Assembly: GCA_963811165.1 (NCBI GenBank)
Contig: CAWEQH010000010.1
Location: 96,001 to 160,000 of the forward strand
Source: an uncultured Nitrospiraceae bacterium
GTDB lineage: Bacteria > Nitrospirota > Thermodesulfovibrionia > Thermodesulfovibrionales > UBA6898
Reading direction: 5' to 3'
DNA: 64,000 bases
Each line of letters starts with the position of its first letter. Within the stretch, counting starts at the first letter, position 1. A program made the position numbers. This document shows positions 15,001-24,000 of this stretch, piece after piece.

Positions 15001-18000
15001 TTTCCCGATGATGTCCGCCTTTGAAATGAACAAGAACCTCGACTACCTCGAGGAACATATAAGGTCGGTGCCGGAATATGCCGGGGAGTTCAGGAAGGTC
15101 TTTGGCGCAGAGGTGACGCGGGGGAGGATCGCGATGGCCATTGCCTCTTTCGAAAGGACGCTGATATCAAAAAATGCGCCCCTCGATCTGTTTTTGCAAG
15201 GCGATGGTAAAGCCCTTTCAGCCGGCGCGAGACGGGGCCTGGAGGTCTTCAAAGGAAAAGGGCGGTGCAGCGACTGTCATTTAGGCGCGGACCTTACCGA
15301 TGATAAGTTCTTTGCCCTGAACGTGCCGGAGAATCCGAAATTGCTCGATGACCCGCGAGTTACCACGACCATGCGCTTTGTGGCAAAGATCTACCATTAT
15401 GAAGAGTACCGCAACCTCAAGGAGGACCTGGGCCGATATCTTATCACGAAGGACAAAAAAGACCGGAAGGCCTTCAGGACCCCGACGCTTCGGGATATCG
15501 CAAAGACCGCCCCCTATATGCATAACGGCGTGTTCAGTTCTCTTGAGGAGGTCATTGATTTCTTCAATGACGGAGGGGGAGAAGGTAACACTGCCCTTAA
15601 ACCGCTCGGACTGACGGCGGAGGAAAAAAAGGACCTCAAGACATTCCTTGCCGGGGCCCTCTCAGGCGAAGAATTAGTAATCAAAGTTCCCGAAATACCG
15701 TAAGAGAAAAAAGCTGCGAAGAGGGCCGAGAAGGAAGAAAATTTGTTTAAGCGGGAGATTAGGACCATGAGGACAAGATCATGATAAAATGAATATATGG
15801 AGTTGAACCCGATGTCATCAAAGCCCTTCAGGTAAATTTGGCGGATTACCGTGTCGACGTCACCATCGATCCAAAATATTGCGTTATACAGGAAGTAATG
15901 TCCAAGTATTTCGGTCTGCAAAAAGAGTTGGATATTTTTCTGAAGGAGAATTGCCACCCCTACAAGAACTGGCAATTCATTGTGCATGAGACAAGGACTT
16001 TTTCTCTCGGTTATTTCTACGATTTAAGGACCGAACCAAGGGGTCCCGAGGCAGTCAAACTCTATATTGAAATCGCGCTTGAGGCCATCGAGAAGGCCAA
16101 AGAAACAGACGTAAAAACAGATGCATATAATACTGTCTTCCTCCTCCTGCAGAAATGTATTCAGGAATCCGGGGAAGAACTGAAAAGGTTCCTGCCTGTG
16201 ATAGAGTATGGTTTTGACCGGATAAGCCAATTCCCCCCTGACCTTTTTGCTCTTATCGCCAGGAGCTACTATCAGTTGAACAGGCTTGCCGAGAACTTTC
16301 TTAAGAATACGCCCGAGGAGACAGACTTCCGGACCGTTAATTCTCTCTTGGTCAATTATTTCCAGTATACTTTTTCCTACTGGCTCTCTGAAAAAGATCC
16401 CGGAGAATGGTTCGCAGGCGAAATCCCCCACAATGTTCCCGCGGAAATAGCCGTCCTCTTCGGACCTCTCTCTCACGTGCAGATAAAGACCCGGCAGACA
16501 CGACTTTGGGGCATAGCAGGCAGGAAAGACAACGGTTCCCGCGACACTCTCAAGGACCTTCTTGAACTGCCGGGATACGGGAATTTCGTCAGCGCCTACC
16601 AGGACCTGCCCGAGAAGATATTTAACGCAATTCCCGATGAAAAGCTGAAACACCATTACAAAATGATTTTTCTTTTTCATATGATGAATATGGCCGGATT
16701 ATCGAATATCCACGAGGAAACGCTCAAAGAGATCAACCGTACAATCGCCTGGCTTATCTATCATGAAGACATTCAAAATGTGAAACTGTTGATTCAAAAG
16801 ACCTTCGGTATTCTGAAGGAGATCTCGGACAAATATCCGGAAACGGTGCTCAAGTCTGTGTTGAACATGGGAATGGGCGTATACAAAACCGATGAAAGCG
16901 ACCTGGTCCATTTTTTCAACGAGCAGGTCGTACGGTTAGGGTTTCAGACCCCGGACTTCAGAGGGATCAGTGACGACTGGCAGATCCAGAGCAATCTTGC
17001 CCATATCCAGAACATCCGCGTCTGGATGGAATTGATTAAGCTGAACCCGAAGTGGTCCAAGAAACTTCTCTCTTCTCTTATCATCCACCTTTCACTCAGC
17101 GGTGTCCTCATTAAGGATACCGATTTGTTCCCGAGGGACATCACCAGTTTTTTAAACAGCGACATCCGGCCGGTGTATAATCTTTCGAAACAGCTCATGC
17201 GGCTTTTCCCCGCCTACTTCAACGAAATAGGGGCTGAGGGACTGCTCAGGGACATCTCTACGGAGATCGACGAGATAAGTAAGCGCAAGGATGTCCTGAT
17301 ACATTTCCTGAGGAAACTGAGTCATGTGGAGAGCTCAAACAAGATCGTACCGCTCATAGAAGCCACCCTTGATTTCTGGAAGACTAAATCGAAAGAAAGA
17401 CTGAGGCCCTATCTGCCGCAGAATCTCTACGACCAGATAGAAACAGAGGGCCCTTACATCGATGGCGTCAACACGGTAATAAACCGTATTTTTCAGGCCG
17501 GGGGCCTTGCCGGGATTTCCGACCTCCTGTCGCTCGGGGCAGACTACATGGCGGAATTCTCCGGAGAATTTATCGAAGAATACCGGCCCGATATCGAGAG
17601 GGTCAGGCTGGCGGTGAATTTTTATAAACTCTTGAACCAGAAATACTGCATCGGCAGCTGCGAGGTGATCGACTACATAGCCCAGGTGCGGTCAAGCGTT
17701 CCCTTTATATTCGATGGACTGAGAGATACCCTCTCCTTAAAAGATACCTTCAGGAAGGCCTCCGGGCTGCTCGATTACCTCCAGAAGTTGAAGAAAATTA
17801 TCCTGTCGCCTGTAAAATTTGATATACACGAGGATATTTACCGGAAACGTCACATCGCCGCCGACATACCTTCCATGTACGGCAGCTACCGTGAAGAAAA
17901 ATTCGATGCGCTGGGGCTCACCTTCCGGCTGGAGTTTCTCGTGAATACCCTTTTTGAGGAGCTGATAGAAGACTTTGATTTCGGGTTTATCACTCATGGA

Positions 18001-21000: not shown

Positions 21001-24000
21001 GCCGAAAGCCGCCGCCATTATTGAGGGCCACGAGACGCACACCCGCACTGCAGAAGCGACCGTAGATATCGAGAGACTTACCGGCATAAAAAAGGAATTA
21101 CTGAAAGAATTAAAGAATACAGAGATCGGAATCCCCCTGACCCAGGCCGTCATCTACGGATGGTACGACAACGAAATGGGCAACTACGTTCATATGCTCG
21201 GAGAACTTACAAGGTATGCAGCCGAATCATAGGACTGTATGCATATTCCTGGGCCTTTGCAGGAGCAAAAACTGAAAAATTTTGCTCCCCGAGCGCGACG
21301 CTCAGCGAAACTTTATGAAGTATAATTTCCAGTTTCTTATGGTTCCGGTTCAAGTTAACAACCCAAAAACGAGCCATCGACTATTACGCGTAGAAGCTAA
21401 ATGATGCAATCACAGTACCTTGCCAACACAACATAAATATTGTATTATTAATTGTGTCCGGTAGGCAACTGATAAAGCTGTTACAGGAAAAGGGCTGGCA
21501 TCTGGACAGAATAGAGGGAAGCCATCACATCATTATCAAGGGGAATAAAACGCTTTCGATCCCAGTGCACGGCAGTAAAGACTTAGGTAAAGGCCTGCTT
21601 CATGCCTTAATGAGGCAAGGAGGTTTGAAATGATACTCACATATCCAGCGAGAATAAGGCATATTTCAGAGGACAAGTCTTACCTTGTTGAATTCCCTGA
21701 CCTTCCAGGATGTCTTACAGAAGGGGCTACACTTGAAGAGGCGAAGCAAAATGCAAAAGAAGCGTTAACCGGCTATCTATCCTCGGTCTTTGAAAGGAAC
21801 TTCAAAATTCCCGGTCCTTCAGCTTTAAAGGGAAAGAATATCCACAACATCGAACCGGAACCTGAAGTGGCAGTTCCCATACTTCTCAGAAAATTCAGAG
21901 AAACCAGTAAACTTACTCAGGGAGATATTGCAAAAGTGCTTGGCATTTCTTACCAGGCCTACCAACGCTTAGAAAAGCCTGGTAAGAGCAATCCTACCCT
22001 AAAAACTCTTGAACGTCTTGCAAAAGTGTTCAATAAAGATCTCCGGTTGGAATTTGCATAATATTTTCTGTGGATTGGGATTCACTATTCCCGATTCTGT
22101 CGGAAGCTATAGCTGAGATTTTTGTTCTGTGTGAAAAAACTCTAAGGGTGGCTCCTCCCCGGAAACTCTGCGGTCAACTTCTAACAGGTTGTTGAAAAAG
22201 TCCTATTTTCTCAGGAAAGTCTGTCATACCCGCGAAGGCGGGTATCCAGAAGCCCCGGAAAACGCTGGATTCCCGTTTTCACGGGAATGACGCCTATGGG
22301 CCCAAATGGAGTTTTTCAACAGCCTGTTAAGCCATTCGATGTCTGATCATTGGGGGAACTCTTGCTAACTTTCATTGACAAAAAGGTGTTATTTTTGATA
22401 TAAAATTAGATTCACTGAATTTGTTTGTTCTTGATTTAAGTCGATATTCCCGGGTAGCTCAGCTGGCAGAGCAGGTGGCTGTTAACCACCCTGTCGGGGG
22501 TTCGAATCCCTCCCCGGGAGCCATTCTTCTTCGAATGGCTTTCACTTTTTAAATTCTGTGAAGTGAATCATCGACTGCTTCTTATGTCGGCTCAACTCCT
22601 GAAGTATAGTAATTTTTCCCAATAACCTTTTCCCAAATTTACAATAGAATGACCCGATATGCTAATATTTGGGTAACAAACGAAGATGAAGAAAAGGCAC
22701 TTAATGAATTTTCTCACCAGTTCGGGCAGCCTGAAAAAAATCTCGCTTATTTTTTTTCTTTGTGTAGGCACAGTCGCTTTCCTTTCGCCCGCTTTTTCGG
22801 GCGTGCCGCAGAGAAAAGTCCTTGCGATTAAGGTGAGCGGCGCGATAAGTCCCGTCTCTTCGGAGTTCATTGGGAAGGGCATACGCCAGGCCTCTGCAAT
22901 GAATGCGGAAGCCCTTGTTATCGAACTCGATACCCCCGGCGGACTCGATACCTCTATGAGGAGTATCGTGAAAGACATAATAAGCAGTACCGTACCGGTC
23001 ATTGTGTATGTCTACCCAAGCGGTGCCAGAGACGCGTCAGCCGGCGTGTTCATCACATATGCAGCCAACATTGCCGCCATGGCCCCGGGGACGAACATCG
23101 GCGCGGCCCATCCGGTATCGGTGGGCGAAAAAATGGACAAGACGATGGCGGAAAAGGTGACCAACGACGCGGCTGCCTATATCCGGTCTCTGGCGGAGCG
23201 GTCGGGGAGAAATGCGCAATGGGCTGAAGATGCGGTGCGCAAGAGCGTCTCCATCACCGAAACAGAGGCCTTAAAGGAACACGTCATAGACATTGTCAGC
23301 AAAGACCTGAACACTCTGCTTAGAGACGCAGACGGCAGGAAGGTGACGACGGTCATGGGAGAAAGGACGCTTCACACTTCGAATGTCACGGTCGTGACGG
23401 AAGAGATGGGCATGAGGTACAGGATATTGAACTTTATCTCCGACCCAAGCGTTGCCTATATGCTTATGCTGCTGGGATTTTACGGCCTTTTTTTTGAGCT
23501 CACAAACCCCGGAGCGGTCTTCCCCGGGGTCGCCGGTGCGATCTGTCTCATTCTCGCCTTTTATTCCTTCCAGACACTGCCCGTCAATTACGCCGGGCTT
23601 TTGCTTATCATTCTGGGGCTGGTCTTGTTTGTCCTCGAAGTCAAGGTCCTTTCGCATGGGGTCCTGACTGTCGGCGGGATTGTGTCGATGGTCATAGGTT
23701 CCTTGATGCTTTTTGAATCCTCCGAACCTGTCTTTAAACTGTCGCTCTATCTCATTCTCCCCGTAGTAATTTTTACGGCCTTGTTTTTTACGGCTACGTT
23801 CAGGCTTGCCTATAAGGCATACAGACGAAGGCCCGTAACCGGCAGCGAAGGCCTTGTCGGGCTGGATGGGAGGGCCTCTACGGACATAACCGGGGAGGGC
23901 GGTATCGTCAGGGTGCGGGGAGAGATCTGGTCTGCCTGTTCCGACGAGACAATTAAAAAAGGGGAAGCGGTTTCAGTCGTTTCCTTATCGGGTTTAACAA

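Follow-up and report, generated by a model that had tools for sequence, protein, structure and literature searches.

A barrel-less relative of pyruvate phosphate dikinase coupled to a long glyceraldehyde-3-phosphate dehydrogenase: a possible 3-phosphoglycerate dikinase of anaerobic bacteria

What does a pyruvate phosphate dikinase (PPDK) relative do when it lacks the part that binds pyruvate and is followed directly by a glyceraldehyde-3-phosphate dehydrogenase (GAPDH) gene? Such a pair lies in the window, a 64,000-nucleotide stretch of contig CAWEQH010000010.1 from an uncultured Nitrospiraceae bacterium. ORF calling places the dikinase (P0001, 1382 aa as called) at 15838-19986 and the long GAPDH paralogue (P0002, 414 aa, identified by Pfam) at 19988-21232. 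As the genome-wide survey's note had stated, the two ORFs are one base apart; they share the + strand, to which all coordinates below refer. The TTG start called for the dikinase is artificial and results from the loss of one base near 15822. The N-termini of close relatives, MSSKALQVNLADY, and a three-frame reading place the true start at ATG 15812 (15812-15837; alternative ATG 15797), which is out of frame with the called ORF. One extra base follows 15822 in contigs of sequencing runs X2 and X4, which belong to two studies; X1, the closest run, has no coverage there. The dsrA gene of the same assembly is broken into four frame-shifted pieces. The loss is therefore probably an assembly error, and the true dikinase is likely to have about 1390 residues (about 1391). 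A promoter and terminator scan gave numbers near chance (10 vs. 7.4 and 14 vs. 9.1).

The resemblance to PPDK is restricted to the C-terminal part of the protein, in agreement with the note. Pfam finds PPDK_N at residues 936-1170 and PEP-utilizers at 1289-1367 and does not find the PEP-utilizers_C barrel (PF02896), the protein ending after the swivel domain. PPDKs in the PDB align with residues 894-1375 only, through their chain residues 18-510. The nucleotide domain (residues ~874-1235; 18457-19542), defined by Pfam, PPDK alignment and Foldseek, has all three ATP-grasp subdomains, NBD2 included, and is PPDK-like rather than PEP-synthase-like (E 2.6e-120 vs. 2.7e-21). The phosphohistidine swivel domain (19570-19977; PF00391) is recognized by PPDK alignment and conservation and has a Z of 13.4 to 2fm4; its catalytic His1319 lies in the motif TSHAA at 19792-19794 and is kept in 136 of 137 alignment rows. 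The nucleotide-binding residues R969, E1213, Q1228 and R1230 are kept in 136, 136, 136 and 132 of these rows, respectively. K897, present in all 137, corresponds to Lys22, whose nucleotide-binding role has been described (PMC4844700). The top Foldseek match of the dikinase model is 1kbl (rmsd 3.0 over 542 columns). Like PPDK (EC 2.7.9.1; TIGR01828; 1kbl, 1vbg, 5jvl), the protein has an ATP-grasp and a His swivel domain, with 34-36% identity and the catalytic Lys, Arg and His kept. Unlike PPDK, it has no PEP/pyruvate barrel, a linker before the swivel that is ~30 residues shorter, ~890 extra N-terminal residues and a tie to GAPDH. The whole protein scores 403 bits against TIGR01828 (cut-off 843), 33 bits against NF041857 (cut-off 999), and 328 bits (E 1e-97) against NF004531/PRK05878, a barrel-less model of 534 positions with a cut-off of 456. 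These data support the view that the dikinase is a barrel-less PPDK derivative with intact phosphotransfer machinery, mis-named in databases.

The N-terminal 889 residues belong to no Pfam family, as had been claimed; the sole match, MukF_C (E 0.09), is below its cut-off. Their earlier description as one all-helical solenoid is too simple: in the model of residues 321-1382, a helical core with a beta-hairpin at ~664-685, in which invariant residues lie, is followed by a helical bundle. Pfam detected no HEAT, ARM or TPR repeats, and structure matches to solenoids had TM values of 0.14 or less. The core (residues 365-715; 16930-17982), a candidate acceptor site by conservation and structure modelling, contains the invariants H389, D427, R471, D478, D485, R492, K493, H496, K602, Y603, E665, K670, R671, H672, S679, Y684 and E686, which are at least 99% conserved across the 137 rows at identities down to 26%. 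The hairpin (residues ~664-686; 17827-17895), seen in the secondary structure of both models, carries the conserved motifs K-R-H and S-x-x-G-x-Y-x-E. With the core model (pLDDT 92, pTM 0.89), Foldseek gave no match at E 0.001 or better and the best VIA match (Z 6.3) was at background level; this does not prove a new fold. These fold searches found no likeness to phosphoglycerate-binding proteins. Searches of the ESM Atlas with residues 1-885 retrieved clusters of this same family and no others (best score 0.87), and the N-terminus of a second subfamily, type II, gave no usable match.

The family is large, with 1410 relatives among 7999 candidates scored and 382 clusters at 50% identity over residues 321-880. 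About three in ten sampled Desulfobacterota genomes carry it, the named carriers include sulfate-reducer lineages, and the host genome of the window has dsrA and acsB. The claim that the pair is conserved holds: of 301 genomes, 88 have the dikinase and 90 the long GAPDH, and 87 have both; among 251 genomes the two occur together in all 21 with a type I dikinase. In 16 of the 87 cases the assembly does not place the two genes side by side. Of 43 distant metagenomic loci having at least 1.5 kb on both sides, 36 have a GAPDH gene within the 6 kb flanks. In 25 of 80 genomes, pgk lies no more than 2.5 kb downstream of the long GAPDH. Wood-Ljungdahl genes precede the pair in eight Desulfobacterota loci that are sized alike; Pfam was run on two of these, L004 and L005. 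Type II dikinases differ from type I in the N-terminal region; a GAPDH adjoins 5 of the 17 type II loci fetched, and four genomes with type II have the ordinary Asp32 type as their only GAPDH. The core invariants are common to subfamilies with different GAPDH neighbours, type II included. One metagenomic clade of dikinases stands head-to-head with an ordinary gap.

The long GAPDH is distinct from the 335-aa gap beside pgk in the same genome (32% identity) and retains the catalytic motif SCTTTC, with Cys190 at 20555-20557, as the note had reported. Long GAPDHs form their own clade in the tree (support 100) on a long stem of 2.1, and the protein scores 320.5 bits against TIGR01534, below the cut-off of 367.2. 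S189, C190, T191, H220, T255, R279 and W392-E396 are invariant in 32 of 32 sequences and G256 is at least 90% conserved; the glyceraldehyde 3-phosphate (G3P) and phosphate-site residues are kept. By alignment, an N-x-G-R loop (residues 37-40; 20096-20107) replaces the Asp32 loop of NAD-type GAPDHs. It is present in 74 of 83 long-GAPDH loci, the other 9 not being parsed, and ordinary copies keep NDL. Bacillus GapB is a known NADP-type class I GAPDH. The N-x-G-R loop together with the invariant Arg99 suggests, with residue roles taken from PMC3728087, that the long GAPDH uses NADP(H). Plastid GapA and GapC1, treated in the same paper, share the class I active site and an Arg at the Arg77-equivalent position; they differ from the long GAPDH, a separate clade that is ~80 residues longer and has the N-x-G-R loop. 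An apparent absence of Pro188 was set aside because the S-loop alignment is ambiguous. In the single-contig genomes G281 and G319 no GAPDH other than the long one was found, and the ordinary gap is missing where synteny would place it. The ordinary gap decays while the long GAPDH stays: phosphate-site residues are lost in two loci (L085 and L086), the catalytic Cys is changed to Ser in L087, and the gene is deleted in L088 and L089. Judged by its active site, by the pgk downstream and by its place as sole GAPDH in two genomes, the long GAPDH behaves as a true G3P enzyme.

A further feature of the long GAPDH tracks the presence of the dikinase. The H351-x-R353-T354 motif, followed by an insertion of ~28 residues (21038-21136), is present as H-x-R in all 77 parsed loci of dikinase carriers, including 14 that do not adjoin the dikinase gene. 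The five genomes that lack the dikinase have all lost the motif, through losses at three or more points of the tree. A complex was also predicted between dikinase residues 1-580 and one GAPDH subunit with a score of 0.70, against 0.00 for the best control; this mark is reached by 116 of 157 solved pairs and 2 of 215 mismatched pairs. Contacts agreed in at least 80% between runs, and the partner had a pLDDT of at least 86. The predicted docking surface is in the N-terminal region (residues 1-340; 15838-16857), at residues 23-29, 53-61, 98-109, 143-145 and 290; a Y/W/F-G motif at 24-26 is retained in most distant members. On the GAPDH side the main patch is residues 203-210 (20594-20617), with further contacts at 175-180 and 314-320. 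His351 lies outside the interface predicted with these parts. The five orphan GAPDHs show no clear change in patch 203-210, so co-evolution does not support the predicted interface. A GAPDH tied to a kinase partner is familiar from the GAPDH-CP12-PRK complex; a link to CP12 was discarded, as CP12 was found in 0 of 5 genomes searched.

The note had proposed phosphotransfer linked to the reduction of an acid, and activation of a carboxylate for reduction is still most likely. The G3P residues, the proximity of pgk and the sole GAPDH of G281 and G319 indicate that the acid is most likely 3-phosphoglycerate, or that the target is GAPDH itself. We lean, at a little short of even confidence, towards a 3-phosphoglycerate dikinase that uses ATP, forming AMP, and passes its product 1,3-bisphosphoglycerate on to a bound GAPDH that probably works with NADPH. 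By homology, conversion of ATP to AMP in the ATP-grasp domain would phosphorylate His1319 and release PPi (or Pi). The swivel may then carry the phosphate to the basic, probably metal-binding core site, where 3-phosphoglycerate would become 1,3-bisphosphoglycerate. The long GAPDH, predicted to sit on the N-terminal helices, would receive this product, perhaps by channelling, and, probably using NADPH, reduce it to glyceraldehyde 3-phosphate. The cost of two phosphoanhydride bonds, together with retention of the labile intermediate in the complex, could push the uphill gluconeogenic PGK/GAPDH step in energy-poor anaerobes. By standard values, PGK running backwards costs about +19 kJ/mol and a PPi-forming dikinase about +6, or about -14 after PPi hydrolysis. 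Phosphoglycerate kinase (EC 2.7.2.3), a frequent operon neighbour, makes the same product; the dikinase has no sequence or fold likeness to it and would form AMP through a phospho-His, not ADP by direct transfer.

In favour of the 3-phosphoglycerate dikinase are the intact phosphotransfer residues over 137 rows, the R/K/H/D/E/Y/S core invariants, as in a small-molecule site, the co-occurrence, the proximity of pgk, the sole GAPDH of G281 and G319 and the predicted complex. Precedent also counts for it: in RPH (PMC4844700) and HpeHI/CreHI/PpsAB (PMC12167813), which convert ATP to AMP and are often mis-annotated as PPDK or PEPS, an ATP-grasp/C-terminal His swivel module likewise serves a new small-molecule acceptor domain. 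Their ATP-grasp domain is PEPS-like, and the acceptor domain either separates ATP-grasp from swivel (RPH) or is supplied by a second chain; the acceptor candidate of the dikinase is N-terminal and appears structurally unrelated. Only ATP-grasp and swivel of 5hv1 and 9goj align with the dikinase, and the core alone matches no RPH chain. Against this reading, PGK is found in 64 of 64 genomes (44 carriers, 20 non-carriers) and in 80 of 80 dikinase genomes (five with a divergent form only, one with a fragment at a contig end). It is kept even where the long GAPDH is the only GAPDH, so nothing has been replaced, and PGK would short-circuit free 1,3-bisphosphoglycerate unless it is channelled. The lack of likeness to phosphoglycerate-binding proteins, the modelled place of the His domain at the ATP-grasp domain, away from the core, and the type II dikinases with only an Asp32 GAPDH or few adjacent GAPDHs also count against it. 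Replacement of a missing PGK was thus rejected, as was that of NAD kinase (present in 50 of 50 genomes); replacement of PPDK/PEPS is unlikely, since a barrel enzyme is found in 48 of 50.

The loss of the GAPDH histidine together with the dikinase fits a protein kinase at least as well. The main alternative, though rather unlikely, is an ATP-driven regulatory histidine kinase of the long GAPDH, built like PTS enzyme I from a helical docking domain and a His swivel, with the core as metabolite sensor; it would pass phosphate to His351, with Arg353 helping, or control GAPDH by binding. The retention of PGK, PPDK/PEPS and NAD kinase is what a regulator would predict, and the predicted complex suits it. 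The available part of PMC13400623 describes VadK (Rv1127c), a barrel-less PPDK of ~50 kDa that is tied to the methylcitrate cycle in actinobacteria, autophosphorylates and binds enzymes encoded alongside; that part reports no phospho-acceptor. Model length suggests that NF004531, matched here below cut-off, is the VadK family. In contrast to VadK, which has no large added domain, the dikinase adds a conserved domain with active-site-like invariants, and its partner is GAPDH. Type II shares these invariants, yet has short GAPDH neighbours without a His at the place of His351 or no dedicated partner, and the position of His351 outside the predicted interface also argues against this reading.

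The reverse chemistry, 1,3-bisphosphoglycerate + AMP + PPi to 3-phosphoglycerate + ATP + Pi, is improbable. It would save the energy of AMP and PPi from sulfate activation or AMP-forming ligases while an NADP-type GAPDH supplies NADPH, and would suit the sulfate-reducer lineages among the carriers, the dsrA and acsB of the host, and an ATP-grasp with NBD2 kept, PPDK being reversible. The place of the pair after Wood-Ljungdahl genes points instead to flux from acetyl-CoA to sugars, and a PGK/dikinase salvage cycle would need no dedicated GAPDH. Still less probable is activation and reduction of another acid, such as erythronate 4-phosphate or another carboxylate, in a pathway separate from the glycolytic/gluconeogenic trunk, a part of the earlier proposal that was not supported. 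The strong divergence of the long GAPDH and the usual retention of ordinary gap and pgk agree with it; no recurring third pathway gene was found in the neighbourhoods, and the decay or deletion of ordinary gap, together with the G3P behaviour of the long enzyme, speaks against it. It is very improbable that the protein is what databases call it, a pyruvate phosphate dikinase whose pyruvate-binding domain is of non-homologous origin: two of 50 carriers (G267 and G342) have no PEP-utilizers_C match, but 48 contain an enzyme with the barrel (PPDK, PEPS or enzyme I), the host has a full PPDK, and the tie to GAPDH is left unexplained.

The note's overall picture, in which a PPDK derivative without the barrel has been mis-named and is coupled to a paralogue of GAPDH, is supported by the domains, the catalytic residues and the co-occurrence. 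Our literature search, with coverage mostly outside subscription papers and supplements, returned no paper describing this family or any phosphoglycerate dikinase. Proteomics tables of carrier organisms may list dikinase expression under the name PPDK. Few metabolic steps are as conserved as the PGK/GAPDH pair, which is also a thermodynamic bottleneck of gluconeogenesis. Somewhat tentatively, we propose a second, ATP to AMP route over this step, in which a phosphohistidine 3-phosphoglycerate dikinase of new fold, docked on a dedicated NADP-type GAPDH, would hand over the acyl-phosphate directly, possibly via His351, and the partner would have displaced ordinary gap in some lineages. If true, this would place a new enzyme and a new complex in the trunk of central metabolism. 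The specific residues, the predicted interface and the natural loss-of-partner variants make the two main readings separable by experiment. Metabolic models of sulfate reducers, syntrophs and Nitrospirota now count the gene as PPDK; they would have to change if a widespread partner spends two ATP bonds to drive the PGK/GAPDH step or controls GAPDH through phosphorylation of a histidine. Such a partner would also be a building block for steering carbon from C1 or acetyl-CoA into sugars. The dikinase probably provides sugar synthesis in many anaerobic bacteria with an undescribed step that is boosted by energy, or with a point of control.

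The two open reading frames lie on the forward strand at 15838-19986 (the dikinase, 1382 aa) and 19988-21232 (the long GAPDH, 414 aa), one base apart, as the genome-wide survey's note had placed them. Its reading that the likeness to pyruvate, phosphate dikinase (PPDK) is limited to the C-terminal part was borne out: solved PPDKs aligned with residues 894-1375 only, and Pfam placed PPDK_N and PEP-utilizers within the final 450 residues. Besides the pair, the same genome encodes a full PPDK and, as described before, has an ordinary gap adjoining pgk. The TTG start called for the dikinase is an artefact. 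Relatives start nine residues upstream of it, and an extra base after 15822 is present in contigs from two sequencing runs, each of a different study. The nearest run does not extend over this place; the missing base is likely an assembly error, less probably a strain mutation. Elsewhere in this assembly, dsrA and the next gene (G000:C8:231910-234154) are in frame-shifted pieces, four of them for dsrA, a sign of residual indel errors.

Directly upstream of the dikinase, 14236-15703 holds a MauG/MbnH-like di-haem protein and a DsbA-like thioredoxin fragment, whose best NCBIfam match, over the C-terminal half only, is a (seleno)lipoprotein family; these were not recurring neighbours in the other dikinase loci. 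A HicB-like antitoxin with HTH (21630-22061) directly follows the long GAPDH. The contig of sequencing run X2 departs from the window sequence at 21227, and the HicB stretch looks strain-specific. At 8857-12027, a formate dehydrogenase-like large subunit is split by an in-frame TGA at 9466-9468 (…QARI*HS…), which is probably selenocysteine; genes for an Fe-S subunit and an NrfD-type membrane subunit come next.

In an alignment of 137 rows that includes relatives with as little as 26% identity, His1319 of the dikinase and its ATP-grasp residues were kept in 132 to 137 rows; selection thus maintains the phosphotransfer machinery. The model built for residues 321-1382 (pLDDT 90.7, pTM 0.79) fitted 1kbl with an rmsd of 3.0 over 542 columns, and in it the His domain sits at the site for the nucleotide. 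The residues before PPDK_N gave no Pfam match over the cut-off, in agreement with the survey's N-terminal solenoid without a Pfam family, but "all-helical" needs correction, as the models contain a beta-hairpin carrying the conserved motif E665...K670-R671-H672...S679...Y684-x-E686. Most of the 20 polar positions kept in at least 98% of rows in this region fall in that motif or in R492-K493-x-x-H496. The conserved core (residues 365-715), folded alone with pLDDT 92 and pTM 0.89, had no Foldseek match and no match above Z 6.3 among 48,161 representative chains; Z 6.3 is background level, and this does not prove a new fold. From residue types only, the core invariants would form a single pocket, and the core resembles a site for a small molecule. 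The invariants are common to type II dikinases without long GAPDH, a distant subfamily of about 1460-1510 aa with a different N-terminus. An N-terminal hemerythrin domain on some family members (proteins P0175 and P0176) suggests oxygen or redox control.

Dikinase relatives were found in 44 of 251 genomes of the window's phylum; 21 had type I, the close relatives, and 23 had only type II. The long GAPDH was present in all 21 type I genomes and in 2 of 20 tested genomes without a dikinase match (drawn from 207). The second sample comprised 301 genomes from the phylum of locus L004 (Desulfobacterota by record titles), with a strong dikinase match in 88 and a weak one in 6. There, 87 of the 88 strong carriers had the long GAPDH and 87 of the 90 long-GAPDH genomes had the dikinase, the two genes being adjacent in 71 of 87 and separated or on other contigs in 16. 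The pair is conserved, as the survey had stated; these figures are counts and not tests, because kin are not independent. In a distant metagenomic subfamily, 43 of 80 loci had flanks of 1.5 kb or more on either side, the other 37 being too short for this count. A GAPDH lay within the flanks in 36 of the 43; 22 had a long form, 17 a short form and 3 both. The two genes decay together in one genome (L137, G332:C15), where a 480-aa internally deleted dikinase remnant adjoins a GAPDH C-terminal remnant.

The retained catalytic and phosphate-site residues of the long GAPDH mark it as a functional G3P enzyme. Its gene is followed by pgk within 2.5 kb in 25 of 80 genomes, and frequent gene orders are gap-dikinase-long gap-pgk-tpi and dikinase-long gap-gap-pgk. 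The ordinary gap is displaced in a small-genome clade: the copy before the dikinase is intact in 2 loci, has lost phosphate-site residues in 2, has Cys replaced by Ser in 1 and is absent in 2. In the single-contig genomes G281 and G319, which lack it, searches with either GAPDH Pfam domain found the long form alone; it is again the sole form found in G320 and G474, which are fragmented. Upstream of the dikinase in L085-L087, full-length, in-frame ordinary GAPDHs with the catalytic Cys changed to Ser or the phosphate site lost are apparently inactive and may have a non-catalytic role, e.g. as subunits. The rapZ gene and a GNAT acetyltransferase gene recur (L084, L088, L092, L097), either ahead of the gap-dikinase cluster or in the interval from the long gap to pgk.

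In the long GAPDH, Arg99 is invariant and N-x-G-R stands in place of the Asp32 loop. According to the available portion of PMC3728087, Arg at the equivalent place helps NADPH selection, and Asp32 may persist in NADP enzymes; NADP(H) use by the long GAPDH is therefore likely on these residues. Short GAPDHs that neighbour type II dikinases belong to a separate, second short clade (family f18; L044:10740-11750, L065-L074, L079, L082), in which Asp32 is likewise lost: ANSP replaces its loop, and the S-loop is rich in Arg. Of the 17 type II loci, 5 have a member of this clade next to the dikinase. In a further subtype (L094, L095, L100, L102) dikinase and long GAPDH lie tail to tail; there the GAPDH carries Gly where SCTTTC has its second Cys, and its 203-210 patch differs.

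The pair comes on top of the trunk pathway. Replacement of PGK or NAD kinase was rejected and that of the barrel-type PEP enzyme is unlikely: PGK was kept in 124 of 124 carriers tested, NAD kinase in 50 of 50 and the barrel enzyme in 48 of 50. An additional PGK homologue of divergent sequence (frame about 435-490 aa, E about 1e-80) occurs in this genome (G000:C4:48800-50005) and in about 30 others; it is the only PGK match in G351, G414, G494, G496 and G540.

We tentatively favour a 3-phosphoglycerate dikinase, which would convert 3-phosphoglycerate to 1,3-bisphosphoglycerate and channel it to the bound long GAPDH. It is preferred because the putative small-molecule site is shared with type II proteins without long GAPDH, because all recurring neighbours point to the G3P/3-PG step, and because several dikinase loci come after Wood-Ljungdahl genes, which this genome has too. 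Domain make-up, residue conservation, inheritance as a pair, the operon setting and loss of the ordinary gap are observations; binding is a prediction, and substrate, direction and cofactor are inferred.

Dikinase and long GAPDH probably bind each other. The predicted complex of dikinase residues 1-580, which have no PDB relative by sequence, with the GAPDH scored 0.70 vs. 0.00 for the best control, a level attained by 116 of the 157 complexes of known structure in the benchmark but by just 2 of its 215 mismatched pairs, counts that hold roughly because custom alignments were used. Three runs shared at least 80% of contacts, with partner pLDDT of at least 86; predicted contacts involve dikinase residues 23-29, 53-61, 98-109 and 143-145 and GAPDH residues 175-180, 203-210 and 314-320. 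We know of no comparable complex.

Evidence independent of this model comes from the GAPDH motif H351-x-R353. Of the 83 long-GAPDH loci that were parsed, 77 have it. Each of the 77 belongs to a locus or genome with a dikinase (two or three are extra copies or repeat a genome), and in 14 the GAPDH gene is not next to the dikinase gene; the remaining 6 are from the 5 genomes in which a search with the window's dikinase found no giant dikinase. In these orphans Tyr or Glu replaces the His, and the insertion is shortened in four. A quick tree puts them in at least three positions within paired clades, two of them being long branches of unsure placement; in G539 the dikinase has been lost from the syntenic position flanked by the two gap genes. 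The picture is not simple, as His351 lies outside the predicted interface and the predicted GAPDH patch is not clearly altered in orphans. A histidine vanishing with the kinase is the behaviour of a phospho-site, and the available part of PMC13400623 describes VadK, a barrel-less PPDK, as autophosphorylating and binding enzymes of the neighbouring pathway. The dikinase could thus be a regulatory kinase of GAPDH, the main rival, which we consider unlikely, if still a serious contender. The same chemistry in the reverse, PPi-saving direction is rather improbable, and action on another acid, in the spirit of the acid-reduction role proposed by the survey's note, is more doubtful still; a true PPDK is the least credible reading. 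The dikinase has a PPDK-like, not PEP-synthase-like, ATP-grasp by profile scores, and its NCBIfam scores are far under the PPDK cut-off.

In the available parts of their descriptions, RPH and HpeHI are, like the dikinase, PPDK-derived, with a new acceptor domain grafted on the ATP-grasp/swivel module; the dikinase would work like them, although it falls outside all named families compared (PPDK, VadK, RPH, HpeHI). Our literature search found no paper on the dikinase-GAPDH family, and the accessible portions of PMC5441870 and PMC5371819 do not treat it. The pair is real, widespread and, as far as searched, uncharacterised in the literature. Channelling by a 3-phosphoglycerate dikinase would explain why these organisms have a dedicated bound GAPDH despite retaining PGK.
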